38,846 nucleotides of DNA, taken from sequence record DRR378314_766; one strand, 5' to 3'. Position 1 is the stretch's first letter. Each line of letters starts with the position of its first letter. The notes beneath the pieces were generated by a model. It did not search any database, was not told the origin of the DNA, and saw only the letters and a list, made by a program, of their open reading frames with translations. The position numbers and the translations under genes were made by a program. Of this stretch, positions 5,187 to 22,875 are shown piece after piece.

Positions 5187-7523
5187 TTAAATTTTCAGGT
5201 CTTTTAGTTTCAAACTAACTCGTTTCGCTAATTTTCTTGTGCGTTGTTGATGCTCCTGCAATACAGTATTGAATTCAGCTTGATGCTGCGTAGGCTTCAA
5301 TAAATGATCGTCTTGCAAAGTCCACCATTCTCGATCAAAGGTTTCAAGCCAGCCATGATTTAACGCTTTACGCAAATGCTTTATAGTTTTAGCAGGGTTA
5401 TGCAACTGAGCGTTTACTTGAGCTAACGCCATATCTGCCTGTGCTTTGTCATGAACCTTATTTAAAAGAAGAAATTGCTCCACATTATTTAATACAACAT
5501 TGGCGTACTCTTGTTCATTTAACTTCAATAAGGTTGCGCCATAGAGCAGCAACGCTAAATAATTGTCACTTGTCACTTCAATTACGCCGGCATTACGCCA
5601 ATCAGCATAAAGGTTTAACAATGAAGTTTGGGCTTGCTCATACATAGCAGCTCTATATTGCGCAATAGCTAAACTGTATTTGTACTTATAGCTATTTGGT
5701 TGAGTGTCACTTAGTTGTTCTAATAGAGAAACTGCGTTAATTGGCTCACCTTTGAGGCCGTAATCTATTAGCTTGAGAGAGTTTTTAAAATGTTCGTGTT
5801 TTGATGTCATGCGAGCCAATATTTTATTGGCTTCTTCATCCTGCCCAATACTTAAGTACGAAAATATAACCTGCTCACAATATTCGTCACTAGAGCAATA
5901 TTCAAGCTGCTCGCTATTGCTTAAGTGCCATTGAGCGATGGCATTAATTGAGCTTGGCGTATTGCGAAATATATGGGTGGATTCAACAATGTTTGGATCT
6001 CGCTCCGGTTCCAAAATTATAGCTCTACGATACAGATTTTGCGCTGTATCTAACTTTCCTCTAATTGCTAAATATCGGCTATATATGCTTTTTAATGATG
6101 CTGAAAGAGGGTTTAAATCAATGGCATGCTCCATATGTTTTATGACTAACGCTTCTTTTCCCATCTGGTTTAGTAGTGAGCTATACCAATGGTGTGTTGT
6201 TGCATTGTCTTCAAGCGCTAAGGAACGTTCGAACTTTTTCTGTGCTTCATTCAAGATAGTTAAAGGGGCTTCGGAGTAACTTGCATTAAGAGTCAATAGC
6301 ACCCCTTTAGCTGCAAGCGCCATCGACGAGTTTGGCTCTAAAGCTAATGCTTGCTCTATATGAGGAAGTCCTTTATTAACCGACTTTTTCGCACTCCAAT
6401 TCGCGTAATAATGAAATTGGCTGTAAGTGATGGCCAGTCCAACGTGTGCGTTCACGTAATTAGGCTCTAACTCGAGACTATGTTTAAAATAAGTCTCTGC
6501 TTTTGATAGTGAGGTTGGCGTTCTTTGCCGCCAGTGATATTGACCCATTAAAAACCATTCGTATGCTTGGCTGTCTATTTTCTTTTTGGTCACGATTTGG
6601 GCTTGTGAACTTGGTTGAATAGTCAGCCTAATTTCGCGGCTTATTTTATCCTGCAAACTGAATAAATTTGATTTTGTACTGTCAAAACTTTTTGCCCAAA
6701 GCAATCGTCCATCAAACGTGCTAATTATTTGTACATTTACTCTTACTTGATCCGCTGATTTTTGGACGCTACCGTCTAATAAAGCTTCTACCTTAAGGGC
6801 GCTACCAATTATGGATGGATCCTTATTTCCTCTGAAGTTGAAAGAAGATTCACGAGAAATTACCTTTAAAGGTTTTGATTGAGAAAGCTGGTTAATGATT
6901 GCGTCAGAAAGTCCCTCTGTAAAATGTACATTGTCTTCATTATCATTTAGGTCTTCAAAGGGTAATACAGCAATTGAGCTAATAGCTACATAATCATCAT
7001 TCTCAGGTTCTTGATATACTCGAAAGAAAATAACGATAATGATGACGGCAATTAACAGCAATAAGAGCGAACTTTCTATAAAATTAGGTTTACGATAGTT
7101 CGTTTGTAAATTAAGCGTATTTGAGGGCGCTTCTGGTGGTTGCGTGTTTTCTACTAGCGGTTTTACGGCTGCAACTAAACAATAGCCAACATTAGGTATC
7201 GTTTTGATAAATGTTGGTTGGCGAGCATTGTCTCCTAATGCTTTTCTAATTTTACTGATCGCTACAGATAATATCTCTTCGTTGACAATACTCTCTTGCC
7301 AAACATGCTCAATAATTTGTCCTTTGGTTACACTTTTACCAGCATTATGAATGAGAAATAAAAGCACTTGCATACTCTTATTATCAATTGACTTTTGTTC
7401 GTTATTGTCTTTAAACGTATTGGTGATTGGACAGACAACCCATCGTCCTAATTGATATTTTTGACTGTTTTGCAAAGACATATCCGAAAAGTAATTTTTC
7501 TGAAGTGTATTATAACTGAACAA
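5187..7523 (-). CDS. CadC-like winged-helix regulator with TM, TolB-like and TPR domains
   Basis: HVW...LSVAISKIRKALGDNARQPTFIKTIPNVGY wHTH; one TM; SIAVLPFED; AYEWFLMG TPR region. The true start may be ATG 7481. Confidence 0.9.
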   Translation of the reverse strand: MFSYNTLQKNYFSDMSLQNSQKYQLGRWVVCPITNTFKDNNEQKSIDNKSMQVLLFLIHNAGKSVTKGQIIEHVWQESIVNEEILSVAISKIRKALGDNARQPTFIKTIPNVGYCLVAAVKPLVENTQPPEAPSNTLNLQTNYRKPNFIESSLLLLLIAVIIIVIFFRVYQEPENDDYVAISSIAVLPFEDLNDNEDNVHFTEGLSDAIINQLSQSKPLKVISRESSFNFRGNKDPSIIGSALKVEALLDGSVQKSADQVRVNVQIISTFDGRLLWAKSFDSTKSNLFSLQDKISREIRLTIQPSSQAQIVTKKKIDSQAYEWFLMGQYHWRQRTPTSLSKAETYFKHSLELEPNYVNAHVGLAITYSQFHYYANWSAKKSVNKGLPHIEQALALEPNSSMALAAKGVLLTLNASYSEAPLTILNEAQKKFERSLALEDNATTHHWYSSLLNQMGKEALVIKHMEHAIDLNPLSASLKSIYSRYLAIRGKLDTAQNLYRRAIILEPERDPNIVESTHIFRNTPSSINAIAQWHLSNSEQLEYCSSDEYCEQVIFSYLSIGQDEEANKILARMTSKHEHFKNSLKLIDYGLKGEPINAVSLLEQLSDTQPNSYKYKYSLAIAQYRAAMYEQAQTSLLNLYADWRNAGVIEVTSDNYLALLLYGATLLKLNEQEYANVVLNNVEQFLLLNKVHDKAQADMALAQVNAQLHNPAKTIKHLRKALNHGWLETFDREWWTLQDDHLLKPTQHQAEFNTVLQEHQQRTRKLAKRVSLKLKDLKI

Positions 7524-11902: not shown

Positions 11903-14872
11903 TTAAAAGCGATAGCTGGCACTAAGCGTGTAGCGTGTGCCGAAGGCATTGTGATTTATTGAGTCAAAACCACGGCTTGAACCATATAGTTTAGGCGGCT
12001 CTTTATCAAAAATGTTATCTATACGCACTCTTATCGCGAGTGCATCGTTAACAAAATAACCTGCTGATAAATCCCACACTAGCCAATCATCCACTTGGTG
12101 GTTACCTTGTGAATCAAGTTCACCGAGCTCATCAAGCTCGTCAATTTGACGGCCTCTAAGCCCTTCAATATCATCTTCATAACTGCTGGTGTAGTTTGCG
12201 CCAAGGTTTAGGTAGTAGCTTTGTGCTTCCCAATCGATTGATACACGGCCGATGTTTTCAGGGTAGCGATAGGTACCAATGAGTTTTTCGATTGCATCAG
12301 AGCCCGGTTTATTACGCTCAAACTCAAGGTAGTGAGTACCGTCAAATGCAAATGTTAAGTCACCACCAGATAGTGTAAAGCGGTGATCAAACTTAATATC
12401 AATCCCTGCTAATGTCTGTGTGCCGGTGTTTTCAAGTGGGATAACATGATCACGAAATAATGGTAAGTATTCTTCACCAGGACGGGGATAAAAACCTTCA
12501 GGATTTTTACTGTTGGCTTCGCTATCTTCGATATTTTCACCGATATAGTTAACCAATATTTCACTTAGATTGGCACCATCTTGCTCGATGTCTAAACCGC
12601 TATCATCATAGACACCACATAATCTATTATCGTAAGAAATACCTTCCTGACCTTCTGGCACAATGCCACAATGACGAAGTGACGCGTCCGTGATAGCACG
12701 ATCAAGTACCGCAGTCATATTAGTATCAATCACTTCTTCGTGATCAAACTGCCAATAATCAACGGTCAAGTTAGTATCAACGCTTGGGCTCCACGCAAAA
12801 CCAACACTAATAGCTTCAGATTCCTCAGCTTTAAGGTTCTTATTACCGAGCTCAAGTGAATTAACACTGACCTCAGTACCTTGACCTGCACAGTATAGGT
12901 TTGACACGGCATTATTAGCTGCACAATCAAAGGTTGATTGAGTGGTTCTTAATTTAACACCCGCTTGGGTCAATGAAGGCGCACGGAACGACGTTGACCA
13001 CGAACCACGAACAACTAACGAGTCAGTAGGGCGATAGCTTAGGCCTATTTTCGGGTTAAATGTACCGCCAAAGTCATCATAATGATCGTAACGACCCGCT
13101 GCTTGTAATTCTACCTGGTCGGTCAATGACACATTCAACTCAGCAAATGCAGCGTATTGAGTACGATCAGCCTCTGATAAGCTTGAACCAAAACCAAATA
13201 CATCTACTAGGTAGCCGTTTTCAGGACGTGCTTGTGAATCAAGTGATGGTATGTCGCTTAACTCTTCACGGCGAGCTTCAACACCAAATGAGGCATAAGC
13301 GGGTAAGTCATTAAAAGTAAATAGCTCACCGTTAAAGTTTGCATCCCAGCCGTATACGGTGCTTTCGCCACTACGGGTTGGGCGTGCCTGTGCCGTTGCT
13401 AAAACCGCATCATTAGCAGCATCGCCTTGCACAAATGGATTATAAAATGGCAGTAAGTCGCCTGATGCACAGTTAAGGCTTTCGCCATCATAACTTGCCA
13501 GTGTACCGTCTGAACATAACTCACCTGTAATTGCAGCGTGGAATTGATAACGGTTATACACACCATCAATGGCTTCTTGTTCTGAACTTGAGCGAGAGAA
13601 CGTTACGCCAGACTCCCAGCCCCAATCACCAATATCGCCAGCAAGGCTACTTACTAAGCGAAAGTTTTTAGTTTCTACTTCCACTGTACGTGGGGCGTTA
13701 AAGCGTGCATCAAAACCAAAACCATAAACTTCGCGACCCGCTTGGGTGTCAAATGGGTCAATGTAGAGCTTATCCATTAAATCATTACTGCCGTCTGCAT
13801 TATCATAAATAAATAGTGCATCTTCTAAGATAAACGGGCCATCATCATCATTGATTTGATTAATAGGTGAAGGAGACGAATAGGCTCTAGACTTTGTTTG
13901 ACTGTAGAAAAAGTCAGTGTGCCAATCAAGTTCACCCACATTGCTGTTAAACATGAATCCAGTTGATAGACTTTCAAATGGCGTGTCTAGGTAATCATCT
14001 TGATTTGGGTAGTAGGCACAAATTTGTTCACCAAATTCAGTAGTGACTAGCTCAGTTTTGCAGTTTGGAGCCGGTAACTCATTACCATCACGGCTACTGA
14101 AATAATAAATATTTGGTGAGTTTTCGAGTTTTGGTAAATATGAATAGCCATTAACCAATGAAGGCGATGCAGTGTAATCGCGATCGGTTGCTTTGAATGC
14201 GTTTCGGTCATAAATGTCGGCAAATACCGTTAAGTTACTGTCGCCAATTTTAGTACCATAAACCAAGTTTAATTGTTTTTTACCTTCATCGTGACTGTTA
14301 AAGCTGTTGCCTAAAGAGGCATTTATTTCAGCGCCTTCAAAGTCATCTTTTAAAATATAGTTGATTACACCAGCTACAGCATCAGCACCATAAACAGCTG
14401 AGGCACCCGTGGCTAAAATATCAATACGCTCGATGGCAGCCAGTGGAATAGAGTTTACATCGACGAAGTTTTCAGTGCCTGCAGCAAATGAGCTGGGGGC
14501 AACACGACGACCATTAATAAGAGTTAATGTTGCTGAAGGGCCCATACCACGAAGGCTTGCAGCAGATTGGCCAGCCGGTGTTGAGGTTGAGGTGCCGCCA
14601 CTTTCTGAAGTTGAAAAGGTGCCGCTGCCGCCTTTAAATACTGATAAGTCTTTTAATAACTCATGAATAGTATTCGCCCCTGAGCGCTTTATTGCGTCTT
14701 GGTCTAATACCGTTAATGGGATTGTACCTTCAAGGTCGACGCCTTTTAAGCGTGATCCAGTAATTTCTACTCGCTCAATGTTTGTTGATTCATCATTTTC
14801 TTGTGCATACACAGTGGTGACAGGGCAAAGCGATGCGCTTATTGCCGCTGCAATAGTTAGTTGACGAAACAT
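11903..14872 (-). CDS. TonB-dependent receptor
   Basis: Signal peptide, TonB box IERVEITGSR, plug LRGMG..TLTLINGRR, SAVYGADAVAGVIN, C-terminal YRF. Confidence 0.97.
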   Translation of the reverse strand: MFRQLTIAAAISASLCPVTTVYAQENDESTNIERVEITGSRLKGVDLEGTIPLTVLDQDAIKRSGANTIHELLKDLSVFKGGSGTFSTSESGGTSTSTPAGQSAASLRGMGPSATLTLINGRRVAPSSFAAGTENFVDVNSIPLAAIERIDILATGASAVYGADAVAGVINYILKDDFEGAEINASLGNSFNSHDEGKKQLNLVYGTKIGDSNLTVFADIYDRNAFKATDRDYTASPSLVNGYSYLPKLENSPNIYYFSSRDGNELPAPNCKTELVTTEFGEQICAYYPNQDDYLDTPFESLSTGFMFNSNVGELDWHTDFFYSQTKSRAYSSPSPINQINDDDGPFILEDALFIYDNADGSNDLMDKLYIDPFDTQAGREVYGFGFDARFNAPRTVEVETKNFRLVSSLAGDIGDWGWESGVTFSRSSSEQEAIDGVYNRYQFHAAITGELCSDGTLASYDGESLNCASGDLLPFYNPFVQGDAANDAVLATAQARPTRSGESTVYGWDANFNGELFTFNDLPAYASFGVEARREELSDIPSLDSQARPENGYLVDVFGFGSSLSEADRTQYAAFAELNVSLTDQVELQAAGRYDHYDDFGGTFNPKIGLSYRPTDSLVVRGSWSTSFRAPSLTQAGVKLRTTQSTFDCAANNAVSNLYCAGQGTEVSVNSLELGNKNLKAEESEAISVGFAWSPSVDTNLTVDYWQFDHEEVIDTNMTAVLDRAITDASLRHCGIVPEGQEGISYDNRLCGVYDDSGLDIEQDGANLSEILVNYIGENIEDSEANSKNPEGFYPRPGEEYLPLFRDHVIPLENTGTQTLAGIDIKFDHRFTLSGGDLTFAFDGTHYLEFERNKPGSDAIEKLIGTYRYPENIGRVSIDWEAQSYYLNLGANYTSSYEDDIEGLRGRQIDELDELGELDSQGNHQVDDWLVWDLSAGYFVNDALAIRVRIDNIFDKEPPKLYGSSRGFDSINHNAFGTRYTLSASYRF

Positions 14873-15101
14873 ATTAATTTACCTTTTGTCTTATTCAAGA
14901 GTCAAAACATGCTTTAAATACAGCAGCTTGCTCATTTTTATTATGATTTTTCCAATCGAATTGAGGCAAAATTAATAGCAGCGGCAAAGCGCAGCTAAAA
15001 CTAATGTTATTTTAGTTTTTATTTGCTTTAAATTTGATTGGTTTCAGACAGGGCAGTGATGTTTAGACACAGTTAGCCCCTCACGAGAATGTGAGGTGTG
15101 G

Positions 15102-15176
15102 CTACTCGTCAAACCACTCCGAAAGGTAGTGAGGAGAGTAGAAATATGTACAAAGCGATGTTGCGTTTTTAAACAT
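15102..15176 (-). CDS. Putative leader peptide / small ORF MFKNATSLCTYFYSPHYLSEWFDE (24 aa)
   Basis: Translated by hand: ATG at 15176, TAG at 15104-15102, GGATTGGAATT immediately upstream; co-oriented with the receptor operon and overlapping alternative hairpins. Confidence 0.5.
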   Translation of the reverse strand: MFKNATSLCTYFYSPHYLSEWFDE

Positions 15177-15196
15177 AATTCCAATCCAAAAGGTTT

Positions 15197-15226
15197 TTGA
15201 CAAAGCTAGTTATTGAGTGCTAGCTT
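15197..15226 (+). promoter_or_regulatory. Putative sigma70 promoter of the cyanophycinase, overlapping an inverted repeat
   Basis: TTGACA-N18-TAGCTT with a TG extension; AAGCTAG...CTAGCTT inverted repeat (15203-15226). Confidence 0.5.
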
Positions 15227-15316
15227 ACTCGCGATTTAAAAGTTCCTTTTTTTTATAGCAAGCATAAAGAGACACTGCAAGCTATTTATCATTATATTTT
15301 ACATGCGAGTAACATT

Positions 15317-17091: not shown

Positions 17092-18204
17092 TTAAATTCG
17101 TTCTATCGACCATTGTACTGCTATCAATGCAATAATAAGAGAGCCTGCTGGCATCACCCATTTTTGATATACAGCATATCTTCTGCAGCTTATCAGTAAA
17201 GGTAAGGTAGCGGCTAAAATAGCTAATTGACCTATTTCTACTCCTAAATTAAATGCTAACACACTGAGCAATTGATAGTCGTTTGATAAACCGAGCTCAC
17301 CCAAAACACCCGCAAACCCCATACCGTGTAGTAGGCCAAATGCAAAGGTTATCCAGCCTAAACGCAATACCAATGGCCAAATATTATTTAGTGCAGCAAA
17401 TAATACTGAAATGGCTATGCCAAATTCAACCCATCGGCTATTAGGTGAAAGCAGCTCCATTGCAGTTGCTGTCAACGTAATAGAGTGAGCCAAGGTAAAC
17501 GCTGTTACTATCCAGGCGGTATGCTTAAAAATAGCAATTTTTGATGTGACTCCTTGCCATTTACTATCTTTTCTTACCAATACGCAGGTAAGTAATAACG
17601 CAATTAAAAATAGAATATGATCAAGACCTAGCCAAATATGCAATATCCCTTGATAGACATATTGTTTAAATGTTGCGAGGTAACTGGTGCTTGTAAAGTC
17701 GAACGCCTGGGTTGCTTGATCAGCGCTCATAACACGCGTTTGCGAGTTCACAGTGGTGATGACCTTGTGATTAGCGTCGATATCAAAAAATGCGCTGTAT
17801 GTAAGTATTATCGCGCTTTTTTCAGCACAGTTTACGCTTATGGGCAATACAACATACGGTTGATTAAAGTGATTATCGAGCTTCAAATCGTTGTCGCTTT
17901 GTATAAGGCAGGCTTGTTCGTCAGTTGATGATATCTTGATTGATGCATACATAAACTCATTTAAGGCAGCACGCTTGGCGGTGATTTCATGCCAAGCAAT
18001 ATTGCCATCTTGATTAAGATCGAATGCAATTTTATGTTCTAAATCAATCAGTGGGATCTGCCAAGTACCGCTAAATTCATTAAGTGTTTCAGATGATTCA
18101 ACTTTATTTAAACTGAGATAGCTGGTACTAAGTTGATGAGCAAAAGCGGTGCTGCTGAGTAATAGGCACACACTATACAATAAACTGTGAATGTAATATT
18201 TCAT
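17092..18204 (-). CDS. HupE/UreJ-family membrane protein with an N-terminal periplasmic domain
   Basis: Signal AFA-H; GILHIWLGLDHILF, FTLAHSITL, FGLLHGMGF, FNLGVEIGQ. Start 18204 forms an ATGA overlap with the upstream gene. Confidence 0.92.
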   Translation of the reverse strand: MKYYIHSLLYSVCLLLSSTAFAHQLSTSYLSLNKVESSETLNEFSGTWQIPLIDLEHKIAFDLNQDGNIAWHEITAKRAALNEFMYASIKISSTDEQACLIQSDNDLKLDNHFNQPYVVLPISVNCAEKSAIILTYSAFFDIDANHKVITTVNSQTRVMSADQATQAFDFTSTSYLATFKQYVYQGILHIWLGLDHILFLIALLLTCVLVRKDSKWQGVTSKIAIFKHTAWIVTAFTLAHSITLTATAMELLSPNSRWVEFGIAISVLFAALNNIWPLVLRLGWITFAFGLLHGMGFAGVLGELGLSNDYQLLSVLAFNLGVEIGQLAILAATLPLLISCRRYAVYQKWVMPAGSLIIALIAVQWSIERI

Positions 18205-19208
18205 AATTTTGCCTCTTTTGCGCGTGCCAACAGTTGCTGGTCTGCTTGTAGCTTTGCCTGCTGCCAATTAATTTTTGCCCAATAAAGTGCTTTATCAGGC
18301 TGTTGATCAAGGTCTAAATAATAACGAGCAAGATCGCTGGCATGAAATACATCTTGGCGCAGTTCTCTTAATTGCACGCGTTTTGACATAAGAGTTTGCC
18401 ATTGAGTTTGTGGGTTTTTTGTGTTGTTTCGCTCGGCAATCGCTAAACGAAGTAATAATGCATCTTCTAAATTTTCATTATCGTGAGTTAGTGAAGGTAA
18501 AGAGTTCAGTATTTTTTGATAAGACCCTAAAGCTAAATGAATATCAGCCCACAATACAACCAAACTAACAGGGGCTGTATTTAACTCAATTGAGCGAATA
18601 TGATCCAATGCTGCTTTTGGTTTATTAAGCCTAAGCGCCATCTCACCAAGCACATGACGGGTGGTTTCATTTTGCTTATTAATAACAATACTATTTTTTA
18701 AACTTTGATAGCTTTGTGTTAATTGGCCATCTTGGCTTAATGCATCTAATGCACATGTGTTTACTACATCCATAGGTGCTAAGCCTACAAGATTTAAGCA
18801 TTGTTGTTTTGCTGCGGTGAATTTGCCTTGTACCATCAACATATTTGCTTGTAGTAGATGGCTATTAACGTGTTGGGGGTCTTTTTGTAATACTTCTTGA
18901 GTAATACTTAATGCTTGTTCAAATTGATGTTCACGTTGTAAAACACGAGCGTACATGTAACCAATATCGGGTGTTTTAGATTGTTTGTAGCGCAATTCTA
19001 ATTGTGATTTTAACAGCCCTTGGCGTAATTCTGTTTGACCTACTTGCTGCGTTGTAATGAGTAATGCCATTAACTCATTATTATTCAATATCGCCGTACT
19101 AACAGAGCGTGCCTTGGCTATTATGGTGTTATCGGCAGGTATAATTGGTTCAGCGAATAAACAAGGTGAAAGTACTAGAGCAAAGTAAGTAAAGGCACGA
19201 ATCAACAT
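18201..19208 (-). CDS. Exported TPR-repeat protein
   Basis: Signal peptide, GGAG RBS, TPR-like helices (ARVLQREHQFEQAL, ANMLMVQGKFTAA). Confidence 0.85.
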   Translation of the reverse strand: MLIRAFTYFALVLSPCLFAEPIIPADNTIIAKARSVSTAILNNNELMALLITTQQVGQTELRQGLLKSQLELRYKQSKTPDIGYMYARVLQREHQFEQALSITQEVLQKDPQHVNSHLLQANMLMVQGKFTAAKQQCLNLVGLAPMDVVNTCALDALSQDGQLTQSYQSLKNSIVINKQNETTRHVLGEMALRLNKPKAALDHIRSIELNTAPVSLVVLWADIHLALGSYQKILNSLPSLTHDNENLEDALLLRLAIAERNNTKNPQTQWQTLMSKRVQLRELRQDVFHASDLARYYLDLDQQPDKALYWAKINWQQAKLQADQQLLARAKEAKL

Positions 19209-19258
19209 AGTGTCTCCTAAAAAGGCCTTCCATGGCCTGCAAGTTGGTATTAAAAAGC

Positions 19259-19774
19259 TTAATTATCCGTTAGCAAGTCGTCATAATTGACTTTTGCATC
19301 GGCATTAGTAAAGGCACGTCCGTTAACACTTAGCGGCTTGTCTGTAGGCGCTTGATTAAACGCAGCACGACTAAACTGGGCAAAGTCAACTTCCAGTACT
19401 TCAATTGTAATATCAACCATGGCTGTTACTTGTTCATTGACACCATCGCTTACAGCAAAAGTAAAACTGTCTGTGCCAGTTGCTTCTGCATTCGGTGTGT
19501 AAACATAGCTACCATCAGTATTAACTACAACCATGCCTAGCATAGGTTCAGTGACTAAACTAAATGTCAGCGTATCACCCTCAGGATCAGTGCCTTGTAG
19601 CATATCTTCAATGGTTACTTCGGTTTGTGTTGTAACCATATCTGCAGATGCGGTAGGTGCTTTATTCACCACTGGTGGTGGCTCTACGCTATTTTTGTCA
19701 TCATCGTTATTACAGCCACTAAGCACCAAAACTGTGAGTAGGGTCGCAATGTGTGATAATTTTAACTGTTGCAT
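19259..19774 (-). CDS. Lipoprotein with a cadherin/Ig-like domain
   Basis: AAGGAG RBS, lipobox LSGC, NKAPTA...TDPEGD...DGSYVYTP...GTDSFTFAVSDG. Confidence 0.9.
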   Translation of the reverse strand: MQQLKLSHIATLLTVLVLSGCNNDDDKNSVEPPPVVNKAPTASADMVTTQTEVTIEDMLQGTDPEGDTLTFSLVTEPMLGMVVVNTDGSYVYTPNAEATGTDSFTFAVSDGVNEQVTAMVDITIEVLEVDFAQFSRAAFNQAPTDKPLSVNGRAFTNADAKVNYDDLLTDN

Positions 19775-19784
19775 GAGTTTCTCC

Positions 19785-21377
19785 TTATTTAGACCCTGCA
19801 AGCGGTGTTGCAAGGTACGGGAAAGTTGAATCCATCATCGTTGCGTCAAGTGGAGCACCATCAGTAAACGGCACGTTACCGACACTTGCATCATCACTGG
19901 TACACAGGCCTAAATCAGTATCGGTGCCATTTACAGGCACTGGGTAACATAGGCGGCCCATAACAACACGCAGGGCAATATCGACTACATCATCACCAGG
20001 GCGACGACCATTTGGGAAACCCGCTAAATCATCACCAGCAACACCAAAAGCAGATTGATCGGCTTGCGCTTTTGCGGCAATAGCCGTATTTAGGCGTAGC
20101 ATTTCGGCGCCCGTGACCGTTGCTAATTGGTTAACACCAGGGAAGCCAGTTAAAAATGCTGTAACTAGGTCATTTCTAGGAAAGTTAGTTGGAGCAAGTG
20201 TTTCTAGGTTAGCGCCAAGCGTTGTATTTACTGCATCTTTAAAGAGAATATTCAGTAGCTCAGGTAATGAAGGGTGTGTCACATAGTCAATAAACTGTGC
20301 GTCGTCTTTTGGTTGAGATGTTGAGAATGTATCTTTATCTTTTAAACCAATAACAAGTTCGTTGACCAGTGGGTTACCTAATCGCGATACTTGTGTTAAC
20401 GCTCCGCCGTTAGCCGCATTGTTAGCAAATTTTGCATTTGGATTTAAAATACGTGCTTGCGGTAAGCTTGCAGTAGTCCATGAGCCAATAGTGCCATTAC
20501 CTTCGCCAGTTACGCATGCCTTAGGAACTTCAACAGCAATGGCGGTTACATTCTTATCCTTAAGGTCATCATTATCCATACTTTGTGTTATGCCGCCTGG
20601 GAAGCCTTCGCCATCACCTGCACCTGGTGCACTATCACCTTCTACTGGAACGTAGTTAACCAAATCAAATGTTTTACCTAGGTTTACAACAAATGGGTCT
20701 TTACGTTGTCCAACAAATACTTTTGCCATAGCGTCGCAGCCAGGAACAGCTACATTATAAACAAATTGATCGGCGTACGTTTTGTAGCCGTCCATTGAGC
20801 TAAATGTTTTATTACCAATATAATCAAGTGGTTTACCAAACTCGTTTGTATTCGTGTTGCTGTTAGTGAGCATCGTTTTTGTGCCAGTGCGCATAGGGCC
20901 TGATATCATGCTCATGGTGTATGATTCGCTAAAATTAACCGCTGAATTATCACCAGAGGCAACACCACCTACATTTTTTAAAGGCACAGCGACAGTGCGC
21001 TGGTTATCAGCAGGGCCAACTGTTAACGCTACGCCATTATTATCATTTGGCAGCATGCTTTTAAAGTTGAAGGCAAAAGTAATGTCTTCAACAGCATCAC
21101 CATCGTTATCAATATGAATACTGTAAGTGGCATCAGGATCCATGGCGAAATAATTTGGCCCGCCATAACCATCTTGCAATGGAATATAGTTGGCAATAAA
21201 TGTCACGTAGTCGCCTCGGCCTTGCTCATAACTATTAAATGCATAAAAGTCGGTTGAGTCTAACGTTGGAAAGCGACTAATGTTTGGCGCCTCACGGTGG
21301 CTAGATGCCTCAATTGGGACGCTCACTAAGGTGCTGCATACTACTACTGCTAAAATGGACGGAGTTAATACTTTCAT
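19785..21377 (-). CDS. DUF4331-family secreted protein
   Basis: Signal then SSHREAP; DSTDFYAF, FVGQRKDPF, QVSRLGNPLVNE, GFPNGRRPGDDVVD, FPYL. Confidence 0.9.
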   Translation of the reverse strand: MKVLTPSILAVVVCSTLVSVPIEASSHREAPNISRFPTLDSTDFYAFNSYEQGRGDYVTFIANYIPLQDGYGGPNYFAMDPDATYSIHIDNDGDAVEDITFAFNFKSMLPNDNNGVALTVGPADNQRTVAVPLKNVGGVASGDNSAVNFSESYTMSMISGPMRTGTKTMLTNSNTNTNEFGKPLDYIGNKTFSSMDGYKTYADQFVYNVAVPGCDAMAKVFVGQRKDPFVVNLGKTFDLVNYVPVEGDSAPGAGDGEGFPGGITQSMDNDDLKDKNVTAIAVEVPKACVTGEGNGTIGSWTTASLPQARILNPNAKFANNAANGGALTQVSRLGNPLVNELVIGLKDKDTFSTSQPKDDAQFIDYVTHPSLPELLNILFKDAVNTTLGANLETLAPTNFPRNDLVTAFLTGFPGVNQLATVTGAEMLRLNTAIAAKAQADQSAFGVAGDDLAGFPNGRRPGDDVVDIALRVVMGRLCYPVPVNGTDTDLGLCTSDDASVGNVPFTDGAPLDATMMDSTFPYLATPLAGSK

Positions 21378-21643: not shown

Positions 21644-22339
21644 TTAAAGCAATATAAGCTCTGTTGTATACAATACTTCTGTAGGCAGACCCGTCGGTGA
21701 GCCACCAATTGGCTCTAAACTAATCGCCAGTAGTGCAATATCTTGGGCACTAAAACGGCTATCTTTGAGCAATGATTTGACGCCATCTTTTGGTAAAATA
21801 CCTAAAGAAATGGGGGTATCTTGGCCTTTGAGAATCATCCATAATTGGTAGTCTTTATCGTTTCTTGCAACTAATTTGTCACTGGCTTTAATAGATAAGT
21901 TTTGCTCATCTATATCAATAAACCACAATGGTTGCTCTGTTGCATCTTTAAACAAAGCAATTTGTTGTGTGGGTTGCACCGGCGCTTGTGGCTGCCAAAT
22001 AATCACTGCAAGTATAATACTGGCCGCTGTCGCAATTAAAGACCATGCCTTCCAAATATGTGCTTTGGGCTTGATGACATTTGAGTCAGTGGATGATTGT
22101 ATTGGCTTAGAAGCATCGATACGCTGAGATATAATTTGCCAAACTTTATCACTTGGTTGCTCTGATTGTATTGAGCTCGCTAAGTTATTTAAGTGTTGTT
22201 CCCATATCCACGTTGCTTCTCTAATACGTGTAGAAGTGAGCATTAAGCGTTGAAAACGCTTACGAGCTGAGCCTGTAAGTGTGCCTAAAACATACTCTGC
22301 TGCAAGCATATCTATCAGCTTTTGATTGTCATAATTCAT
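21644..22339 (-). CDS. RskA-like anti-sigma factor
   Basis: AAEYVLGTL N-terminus, single TM, YQLW, AISLEPIGGSPTGLPT; ATGA overlap with the sigma gene. Confidence 0.93.
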   Translation of the reverse strand: MNYDNQKLIDMLAAEYVLGTLTGSARKRFQRLMLTSTRIREATWIWEQHLNNLASSIQSEQPSDKVWQIISQRIDASKPIQSSTDSNVIKPKAHIWKAWSLIATAASIILAVIIWQPQAPVQPTQQIALFKDATEQPLWFIDIDEQNLSIKASDKLVARNDKDYQLWMILKGQDTPISLGILPKDGVKSLLKDSRFSAQDIALLAISLEPIGGSPTGLPTEVLYTTELILL

Positions 22340-22875
22340 AGCGTTAAGCACCTCTGCAGCTGTTGTAAGCCCCGTCTGATCCAGCTTTTAACTGTGCCAA
22401 GTGGAGTGTCTACGTGATCCACCAATTCGCTGTGAGTTAACCCTTTATAATAGGCTAAATGGATCGCTTGTTTTTGCTGCTCATCCAATTGTTCCATACA
22501 ATCAACGAGTTTAGTTTTATCTTCGTAATCGACAGTTATTGCAGTATCTGCAATAGGTTCAAAGTGATCGTTGTCATCATCTAGGCTTTGTTCTTTACGA
22601 ACCTTATGATAACGCAGTGAATCTAAGCTTCGATACCGTACAATACTGATCATCCAGCTAATAACAGTTCCTTTGCTGGCTTGGTATTCAGATGCGTTAT
22701 GCCATATTTTAACGAACGCATCTTGCAATGCTTCTTCCGCATGAGCGCGATTTGTTAACATTTTTAAGCTGATGGCAAATAGTTTTGGGCTAGTTGCATT
22801 ATATAGTTTTGCAAAAGCCTGTTTATTTCCTTGCGCTGTTTGACTCAGCAGCGGTAATAGTTCATCGATTTCCAT
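22336..22875 (-). CDS. ECF sigma factor (SigK-like)
   Basis: AFAKLY, AEEALQDAFVKIW, LAYYKGLTHSEL, PLGTVKSWIRRGL. Confidence 0.96.
   Translation of the reverse strand: MEIDELLPLLSQTAQGNKQAFAKLYNATSPKLFAISLKMLTNRAHAEEALQDAFVKIWHNASEYQASKGTVISWMISIVRYRSLDSLRYHKVRKEQSLDDDNDHFEPIADTAITVDYEDKTKLVDCMEQLDEQQKQAIHLAYYKGLTHSELVDHVDTPLGTVKSWIRRGLQQLQRCLTL

Follow-up and report, generated by a model that had tools for sequence, protein, structure and literature searches.

The stretch of DNA analysed in this study (the window; 38,846 nucleotides (nt) of sequence record DRR378314_766) carries, on its minus strand, genes for a TonB-dependent receptor, a YfcC/DcuC-family carrier and the beta-aspartyl (isoaspartyl) dipeptidase IadA and, divergently oriented, a gene for a cyanophycinase-like S51 peptidase (Table 1). 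The two divergent genes are separated by an intergenic region of 444 nt (14873-15316). This region houses a small open reading frame (ORF) of 24 codons that precedes the receptor gene on the same strand and is referred to here as the leader ORF. Its minus-strand translation was identical to the peptide read in the initial annotation, and the other sequence elements listed there were likewise each recovered in their places in the window. The bases directly 5' of the leader ATG read GGATTGGAATT and include a Shine-Dalgarno-like stretch; GGA-, GAG- or AAGG-like stretches were seen at -14 to -4 of the ATG in most relatives. Beyond the leader TAG, the frame stays open for 6 more codons in the window.

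The profile that identifies the carrier (NF008611) bears the title 'putative basic amino acid antiporter YfcC'. Against TIGR02069, the S51 peptidase scored 75 bits, under the cutoff of 126.6 bits. In two Pseudoalteromonas RefSeq records, the annotated gene order is cyanophycinase, TonB-dependent receptor, yfcC, iadA. Neither record shows a gene at the site of the leader, in line with the original description of the ORF as unannotated, the gene table being incomplete. Clusters of a cyanophycinase gene, iadA and a transporter gene in bacteria without cphA1 have been described as an arrangement for cyanophycin utilization or scavenging (PMC10206079), and in Citromicrobium a TonB receptor is encoded beside the cyanophycinase gene (PMC3400609). 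These clusters contain the same gene types as the present locus; a leader peptide or regulatory element is not mentioned in the accessible portions of the two papers (PMC10206079; PMC3400609).

Table 1. Genes and predicted elements in and around the leader region of the window.
Feature	Position	Strand	Details
Leader ORF, peptide MFKNATSLCTYFYSPHYLSEWFDE	15102..15176	minus	24 codons + TAG; ATG 15176-15174, TAG 15104-15102
Shine-Dalgarno-like GGATTGGA	15180..15187	minus	GGA-rich, 4 nt short of ATG; from sequence
Long hairpin	15061..15114	minus	lower stem: codons 22-24, stop + 2 nt (15114-15100) with 15078-15061
Hairpin tip P1	CCTCAC 15096-15091, loop ATTCTC, GTGAGG 15084-15079	minus	begins 5 nt past stop
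G-poor, C>G, A-rich tract; candidate Rho loading site	15022..15061	minus	+41 to +80 past stop; 11 C, 4 G in 40 nt
TonB-dependent receptor, 989 aa	11903..14872	minus	first gene after leader; Pfam Plug + TonB_dep_Rec_b-barrel
YfcC/DcuC-family carrier, 474 aa	10344..11768	minus	NF008611, 597 bits vs cutoff 500; PF03606
Beta-aspartyl (isoaspartyl) dipeptidase IadA, 388 aa	9165..10331	minus	TIGR01975, 441.6 bits vs cutoff 331
S51 peptidase, cyanophycinase-like, 566 aa	15317..17017	plus	divergent; PF03575, 26.4 bits vs cutoff 23.9
Leader promoter-like site	15252..15280	minus	TTGCAG (15280-15275), 17 nt, TATAAA (15257-15252); predicted start ~15245; from alignment
Possible second promoter	14940..14969	minus	TTGCCT-18-CATAAT; 9/12 consensus matches; candidate
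Putative S51-gene promoter	15197..15226	plus	TTGACA (15197-15202), 18 nt, TAGCTT (15221-15226); in leader 5' untranslated region

The leader ORF was present at all 93 related loci, which belonged to Pseudoalteromonas, Salinimonas, Alteromonas and many other genera. At each of these loci it started with ATG and comprised 24 codons; the stop codon was TAG at 73 loci, TAA at 20 and TGA at none. Together, the loci represented 52 distinct peptides and 63 distinct ORF sequences. A 24-codon ORF is by itself unremarkable, and it is this conservation, combined with the coding signature described below, that lifts the leader ORF above chance. Within the genus, all 11 genomes with a receptor orthologue (97% to 62% identity) carried the leader ORF, and all had the divergent S51 gene. 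At four of the five most distant of these loci the DNA aligned at the ORF only (in one of them, at the ORF and about 85 nt before it), while the remaining one gave no DNA match and its leader ORF was found by translated search only.

Two broader searches gave the same picture. When one genome each of 185,579 species was scanned with the degenerate pattern FY.PHYL.EW, 45 matches were obtained, of which 41 were 24-codon leader ORFs (38 in Pseudoalteromonas, 2 in Salinimonas and 1 in an Alteromonas metagenome-assembled genome). The other four were unrelated chance matches without the flanking residues, start or stop. A receptor gene lay downstream on the same strand in 41/41 true matches, and the S51 gene lay divergently upstream in 38; at the remaining three, the available upstream sequence is shorter than 300 nt. 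Receptor orthologues (E <= 1e-150) occurred in 102/401 genomes of the family, representing 29 of its 59 genera. From other genera, the upstream kilobase of 40 receptor orthologues was taken, chosen to spread over genera and over 44-71% receptor identity, and each of the 40 contained a 24-codon ORF ending in YLSEW[FW][DN]E.

Across 401 genomes sampled over the order, YLSEW[FW][DN]E-stop was found in 24, as a single copy in each and always in the operon leader; the reversed pattern, used as a control, was found in 0/401. Four families of the order carried the core (11/30, 7/29, 1/29 and 5/28 genomes). In a class-wide sample of 401 genomes, with one mismatch allowed, the core was detected in a single genome, the nearest relative of the window, and in none outside the order. 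In the first of the other families, MIFSATLFQRYHFRNWYLSEWWDE and MFPASVSLERYHYRTWYLSEWWDE precede a TonB receptor that is 31% identical to that of the window, followed by YfcC (47-56% identity) and IadA (51-53%), with an S51 gene divergently upstream. In the second, MLKKAFNASVHRSSEFYLSEWFDE stands before a long open frame that reaches the contig end and resembles a TonB-dependent receptor by eye only. In the third, MRKARGFFLAFYFKPFYLSEWFDE precedes a periplasmic binding protein of the Lys/Arg/Orn type (TIGR01096, 274 bits against a cutoff of 256), with IadA next (TIGR01975, 389 bits). Further on, a second protein of this binding type and a HisP-like ATPase are encoded, and a TonB receptor is lacking. 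Upstream of the leader in this third family lie genes for an Xaa-Pro-dipeptidase-like amidohydrolase and an acyl carrier protein (ACP) phosphodiesterase-like protein.

Between families, the first ten residues of the leader differ, while residues 11-24 are common. The operon behind it also varies, with either of two TonB-receptor types or an ATP-binding cassette (ABC) binding protein, and the constant element is the gene for the beta-aspartyl dipeptidase. Since the genes concerned share this dipeptidase and uptake of a basic-amino-acid type, the leader is tied to a pathway rather than to one transporter.

The core consensus read Y-x-[YF]-x-x-aromatic-Y-L-S-E-W-[FW]-[DN]-E-stop, and eleven residues (M1, K3, A5, Y11, Y13, Y17, L18, S19, E20, W21 and E24) were invariant among the 63 distinct ORFs. 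At the codons of these eleven residues, positions 1 and 2 were fixed, save for a synonymous CTN/TTR first-position change at Leu18, and the third position was free, as illustrated by Ala5 (four codons), Leu18 (six) and Ser19 (four). Summed column entropies for codon positions 1, 2 and 3 were 15.3, 12.4 and 28.7 bits, respectively. The ratio of nonsynonymous to synonymous differences (pN/pS, Nei-Gojobori proportions) stood at 0.049 over the last eight codons (17-24), at 0.18 over codons 11-24 and at 0.48 over codons 2-10. When the two alternative frames of this DNA were read instead, the values were 1.1 and 1.3, and stop codons appeared in 47 and 57 of the 63 sequences. Because the substitutions sit at third codon positions of one frame, the peptide itself is under selection. 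These comparisons of sequence indicated that the leader amino-acid sequence is under strong purifying selection, which peaks at the C-terminus. Conservation of the small ORF and selection on it upstream of orthologous receptors, which the initial annotation had named as a check on its proposal, were thus both found (93/93 loci; pN/pS 0.049 versus 1.1-1.3). These data strongly support the reading as a conserved and translated leader peptide, translation being inferred from the coding signature.

The same data bear on the idea that the conserved feature is an RNA or DNA element only, such as a riboswitch-like fold or a protein-binding site, in which the open frame is incidental. ORF RNA does fold better than shuffled sequences (mean z -1.98 over 78 loci; -2.09 in the window), and an upstream TGTCAA resembles a promoter element of the S51 gene. 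Against such an element, synonymous third-position substitutions were confined to one frame, the others having the pN/pS values and stop codons given above, and start, stop class and length are fixed. In Rfam, three matches were obtained, all of them below the gathering threshold (27.9 versus 43, 19.7 versus 55 and 13.5 versus 63 bits), and covariation in the ORF stayed within lineage effects. An explanation by RNA or DNA alone is therefore regarded as highly improbable.

Synonymous codon choice was skewed at some positions of the core. Glu20 was encoded by GAG in 58/63 ORFs and position 23 by GAC in 50 of 51 Asp codons; Glu24 was encoded by GAG in 36 and by GAA in 27. This skew suggested some constraint beyond the amino acid at codons 20 and 23, either from pairing in a hairpin at the stop codon or from decoding (speed).

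RNA features were surveyed at 78 distinct loci. In the window, the minimum-energy fold of the region 15060-15145 had a free energy of -28.4 kcal/mol (z -3.43; 1/200 shuffles as good). The ORF alone folded at -16.1 kcal/mol, with a CUACUC/GAGUAG pairing that buries the stop codon. A P1-type hairpin (dG <= -6 kcal/mol, starting within 12 nt of the stop) was found at 68/78 loci, as compared with 18%, 29% and 39% in three control windows. These hairpins had 54 different 5' arm sequences, so that structure was kept and sequence was not. Relative to dinucleotide shuffles, the mean fold z was -1.57 at nt 1-45 past the stop and -0.28 at nt 91-180. Pairing of the ORF end with the 30 nt just after P1 had a mean z of -1.15, with 29% below -2 (68 loci; controls, -0.33 and -0.06), and at the sole locus with GAT at codon 23 the partner strand reads ...CTCATC. 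A lower stem that takes in the stop codon is moderately supported. The burial of the stop codon in a hairpin, seen earlier in the window, was thus reproduced for the ORF alone, and a hairpin taking in the stop is conserved across loci.

Past this hairpin, the RNA is poor in G. Over the 78 loci, the segment +41 to +80 past the stop had a C content of 0.24 and a G content of 0.09, with C exceeding G at 96% of the loci, as compared with C/G ratios of 0.94-1.24 in flanking sequence. No conserved intrinsic terminator was detected: a hairpin followed by a T-run occurred within 200 nt at 34/78 loci, at scattered positions. The C-rich stretch without a U-tract that had been noted in the window accordingly corresponds to a G-poor, C>G tract, with no conserved U-tract terminator at the 78 loci. 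The base after the stop codon was A at 36 loci, C at 33, G at 9 and T at none, and the next base was C at 64.

Mutually exclusive hairpins, which the initial annotation had proposed from a second CCTCAC inside the ORF, were not supported as a conserved feature. The second CCTCAC is present in the window, at codons 15-16, and in the clade of the window pairing of the 3' arm of P1 with this copy had z values of about -2.3 to -2.9. The second copy is confined to that clade, and over all 68 loci pairing between the 3' arm and the ORF was on a par with that of shuffled arms (mean z -0.27, 9% below -2). Two further candidates were rejected. Pairing of the freed 3' arm with the C-rich tract had a mean z of 0.2 to -0.3, no better than a control arm, and a second hairpin after P1 (P2), seen by eye, is not claimed, as the 8 nt after P1 paired downstream at a mean z of -0.28.

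These structural results also bear on a classical codon-hunger attenuator, in which a Tyr/Phe/Trp stretch would pause the ribosome when aromatic aminoacyl-tRNA is low and thereby operate an RNA switch. The peptide is rich in suitable residues: Y11, Y13, Y17, W21 and F/W22 show little or no variation, aromatic residues are frequent at positions 12 and 16, and next to the three invariant Tyr residues some genera have up to five Tyr in seven codons. However, K3, A5, L18, S19, E20 and E24 are equally invariant, and nothing links the operon to aromatic amino acids. As in the comparison with attenuators of the trpL, pheL and hisL type, from which the leader differs in lacking a conserved U-tract hairpin, in alternative pairings that equal shuffles and in the invariance of non-aromatic residues, neither an intrinsic terminator nor an alternative pairing was conserved. 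A codon-hunger attenuator is consequently considered very unlikely.

The favoured reading, with a probability of roughly 0.58, is that the leader ORF encodes a cis-acting, translated regulatory leader peptide of the cyanophycin/beta-aspartyl-dipeptide scavenging operon that acts in the manner of TnaC and SpeFL. By analogy with these two peptides, stalling, Rho dependence and a ligand are plausible. RNA polymerase would pause after the hairpin, and a ribosome on the leader would melt the hairpin at the stop codon. Without the signal, the peptide would be released, the RNA behind the polymerase would be left bare, and Rho would load on the C>G tract and terminate transcription before the transport genes. 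With the signal, the 24-residue nascent chain, lying wholly inside the exit tunnel, would block release at the stop; the stalled ribosome would keep the hairpin open and hinder Rho, and the operon would be read through. The signal would most likely be a product of the pathway, either L-arginine or lysine, or beta-aspartyl-arginine (beta-Asp-Arg); these candidates follow from the predicted ability of the operons to import and split beta-Asp-Arg/Lys. That the last eight residues are invariant, TGA is avoided and T is absent after the stop fits with a mechanism that acts at termination.

Selection at the amino-acid level would suit any functional peptide, including a trans-acting small protein with, for example, the transporter, the dipeptidase or a regulator as its target; the hairpin would then do no more than determine the balance between short and long transcripts. 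The stable hairpin right after the leader gene agrees with such a function, as stable hairpins also follow other highly expressed short genes. However, a length of exactly 24 codons at 93/93 loci suits the geometry of the tunnel better than a free peptide, and the stop-codon preferences just described point to the termination step itself. Moreover, the three transport systems behind the leader share iadA only and thus offer no obvious common partner protein, and the leader is present as a single copy per genome that is always in the operon leader. A trans-acting small protein is for these reasons judged improbable.

The cis-acting leader peptide was compared with characterized regulatory peptides. 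TnaC has 24 residues and arrests the ribosome at its stop codon; the stalled ribosome blocks Rho and transcription continues (PMC10941005; 10.1101/2021.03.31.437805). Its key residues are described as W12, D16, I19 and P24 (PMC10941005). The present leader resembles TnaC in its 24 codons (a resemblance, not homology), its association with a catabolic/uptake operon, its spread of conserved residues, the lack of a conserved intrinsic terminator and the C>G tract after the ORF. In contrast, the two peptides are unrelated in sequence, and the key residues of TnaC were absent from the 63 ORFs, which have F/H/R/Y/S and others at position 12, H/F/Y/W at position 16, S at position 19 and E at position 24. 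TnaC furthermore ends in UGA, which is read by release factor 2 (RF2), and precedes the tryptophanase operon, whereas the leader ends in TAG or TAA and precedes genes for a TonB receptor, YfcC and IadA. Unlike TnaC, it also has its stop codon in a conserved hairpin, and about 40 nt separate this stop from the C>G tract.

SpeFL, the 34-residue leader of the ornithine decarboxylase gene speF of gamma-proteobacteria, has an N-terminal sensor domain and a C-terminal aromatic effector domain. In its description, a hairpin includes the 3' end of the ORF, a ribosome at the stop codon unwinds it, and a Rho utilization (rut) site mediates Rho-dependent attenuation (10.1101/604074). The ribosome stalls with UAG in the A site and release factor 1 (RF1) blocked, C-terminal aromatic residues are essential, a basic amino acid serves as ligand, and all three stop codons are used across species (10.1101/604074). 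The leader shares with SpeFL a stop codon in a hairpin, a preference for TAG (73/93), an aromatic-rich C-terminal core and a pathway that would yield arginine or lysine. It is set apart, by description, in having 24 residues instead of 34, no speF downstream, no TGA and a tract downstream of the ORF instead of a rut site that overlaps it. Sequence similarity between the two peptides, judged without alignment, was not evident. Since it has neither the residues that define TnaC nor the length and setting of SpeFL, the leader was classified as a new, unrelated leader-peptide family that probably works like them.

The PepNL and NanCL leaders of Escherichia coli are short ORFs whose product, while still nascent, prevents release at the stop codon and modulates the gene that follows (PMC11890864). 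They have 14 residues, a UGA stop read by RF2, no inducer and relief by read-through (PMC11890864), as opposed to the 24 residues, TAG/TAA stops and short in-frame extension of the present leader. An arrest or coupling ORF of this kind would be independent of an inducer: constitutively slow termination, as in PepNL, or mere shielding from Rho would make output follow translation capacity or release-factor activity. In its favour, PepNL stalls at its stop codon without inducer (PMC11890864), stop codon and stop context of the leader are constrained, and the ligand of the leader is a candidate only. Two observations argue instead for a pathway-specific signal, namely the exclusive association of the leader with one catabolic pathway in four families and three operon designs, and the conserved gene cluster, which has no transcription factor to give specificity. 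An inducer-independent role is therefore thought unlikely.

A nascent peptide of the same length is known from fungi. The arginine attenuator peptide (AAP), encoded by an upstream open reading frame (uORF) of Neurospora crassa arg-2, is a 24-residue nascent peptide with an L-arginine-responsive stall for which Asp-12 is essential (PMC7038982). The present leader likewise has 24 residues and stands before a pathway with arginine as end product. AAP is encoded by a eukaryotic uORF and represses an arginine biosynthetic gene, whereas the leader is bacterial and would induce a catabolic/uptake operon. The core of AAP may also contain a Tyr-Leu-Ser-acidic ... Trp stretch, which would be like the core of the leader; if real, this likeness would reflect convergence and not homology. 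More tentatively, and with the odds against it, the leader may be a convergent bacterial counterpart of AAP, in which the nascent 24-mer and the tunnel would together bind L-arginine (or beta-Asp-Arg, or lysine), block release of the RF1 type at the leader's stop codon and switch on uptake and hydrolysis of dipeptides derived from cyanophycin in marine gamma-proteobacteria without a transcription factor.

Several observations weigh against a cis-acting, TnaC/SpeFL-like leader peptide. The loci are phylogenetically related, so that locus counts overstate independence, and stalling, Rho dependence and induction are ascribed to the leader by analogy. The C>G tract, located some 40 nt past the stop, would not be covered by a ribosome positioned at the stop codon, and direct masking as described for tnaC is thus not obvious. 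At 10/78 loci no strong hairpin starts within 12 nt of the stop. The stop codon was paired downstream of the hairpin in 53/78 minimum-energy folds, but this was also the case in 44% when downstream sequence was shuffled. The hairpin-plus-T-run sites at 34/78 loci make intrinsic termination possible in some lineages. A conserved switch between alternative RNA structures was not found in the pairing tests with the ORF and with downstream sequence. Mutual information for covarying positions in the ORF (e.g., 39/72 and 36/75) was 0.14-0.26, as compared with 0.14-0.18 for unpaired controls, which may be a lineage effect. RNAalifold predicted 0 pairs on a 30-sequence MAFFT alignment, a result attributed to misalignment of unrelated stem arms.

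Two results on transcription also bear on this reading. The caveat of the initial annotation that a separate promoter could serve the receptor gene still stands; its TTGCCT-18-CATAAT was listed by a consensus promoter scan of the region, which returned 6 sites against 1.8 +/- 1.0 in shuffles. This site lies in a spacer segment of about 100 nt that is missing in those relatives whose spacer measures 124-136 nt, and a second promoter may, on this sequence evidence, feed the receptor gene in the clade of the window. In RNA-seq library X8, from a relative, a 457-nt contig covers 14768-15206 plus 17 bases in agreement with the sequence of that relative. The contig thus begins about 47 nt upstream of the leader ATG (at about 15223) and extends through leader and spacer to 105 nt into the receptor gene. 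Its bridging of leader and receptor start counts in favour of the leader reading. This single contig is, however, assembled RNA (or contaminating DNA), and it defines neither a transcript start nor a single transcript.

Runs X1 and X2 were discarded as RNA evidence, as they were DNA-like, with whole-stretch contigs at flat depth. In run X4, taken by guess to be RNA, a contig of the receptor 5' region ends at 14916, 44 nt before the receptor ATG and 24 nt past the CATAAT of the possible second promoter, and the leader is uncovered; this observation is too weak to serve as evidence. The spacer 14880-15040 was also considered as a repeat element and rejected, since it is single-copy in the two nearest genomes, bar one 33-nt partial match.

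The promoter-like site upstream of the leader aligns with TTGTCA/TTGCCA/TTGCAC-17-TATAA[AC] in other loci of Pseudoalteromonas, Salinimonas and Alteromonas. It is missing from the list of the consensus scan because its -35 element has only 3/6 matches. Its 17-nt spacer (~15258-15274) contains inverted repeats that vary between lineages (CAGTAT/ATACTG, ACCCAAA/TTTGGGT, CCTGAATTCAGG and GCAGT/ACTGC). At a distance of 27-90 nt upstream of the leader ATG, nearly all genera have kept TGTCAA[A/T/C] on the leader strand; its plus-strand reading is TTGACA, the -35 element of the putative S51-gene promoter. The S51 and leader transcripts may then overlap at their 5' ends. If the S51 transcript starts near 15233, the inverted repeat in the spacer would form a hairpin in the S51 5' untranslated region.

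The absence of a transcription factor from the locus, as originally described, holds for the conserved four-gene cluster but not for the window at large, in which genes for a LysR and a Trans_reg_C+TPR protein lie at distances of 1.6-5 kb. No homologue of either was found in 41 related 8-kb loci. The Trans_reg_C+TPR protein (778 aa, with a winged helix of the OmpR/ToxR type; 5187-7523, minus strand) is encoded 1.6 kb past the end of the operon, and most of the 8-kb loci end short of that distance. Beside the S51 gene, window positions 17092-21377 encode DUF4331, Ig/cadherin-like, TPR and HupE/UreJ-like proteins, followed by an RskA-type anti-sigma gene at 21644-22351. DUF4331, Ig-like and hypothetical proteins are also encoded near the cyanophycinase gene in NZ_CP045419.1 (1-2026 of the locus). 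In this same Pseudoalteromonas record, an arginase-family gene adjoins iadA in convergent orientation (locus 11910-12114), which fits with arginine as a pathway product.

Searches for an earlier record of the peptide were negative. A search of the 24-residue peptide against NCBIfam profiles gave 0 families at E <= 0.01, and an exact look-up of five peptide variants in about 15 billion predicted proteins found none of them. The literature search, which covered main texts, yielded no description of the leader ORF or of YLSEWF; an entry in a supplementary table, or the peptide as part of a longer mis-called ORF, may exist. The main text of a paper on the Alteromonas primary transcriptome does not mention the locus (PMC5864184), and a paper on cis-regulatory RNAs of Shewanella lists only thiamine pyrophosphate (TPP) and cobalamin riboswitches before TonB receptors (PMC2659441). 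With regard to metabolite-sensing arrest peptides as a class, the leader shares their nature as an apparently translated ORF with a selected peptide (pN/pS 0.049-0.18 as compared with 1.1-1.3; operon link at 93/93 loci).

To our knowledge, only a handful of nascent peptides act as ribosomal sensors of small metabolites, and each new one has taught something on the exit tunnel and on release-factor inhibition. The loci described here form a clean comparative set, with 52 natural variants of fixed length, an invariant 8-residue C-terminus, a limited choice of stop codons and three operon designs that lead to one pathway. With this set, a short synthetic template would suffice for a direct test of the hypothesis. 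If the proposed mechanism is true, the leader would extend the few metabolite-sensing arrest peptides by one with a new ligand and a new peptide fold and would provide a portable sensor of arginine or a dipeptide. At this locus, genome annotation misses a conserved gene. Cyanophycin is a nitrogen store that is released by dying cyanobacteria, and the leader peptide, if it acts as proposed, would explain how marine heterotrophs such as Pseudoalteromonas, Alteromonas and their relatives turn on cyanophycin scavenging.

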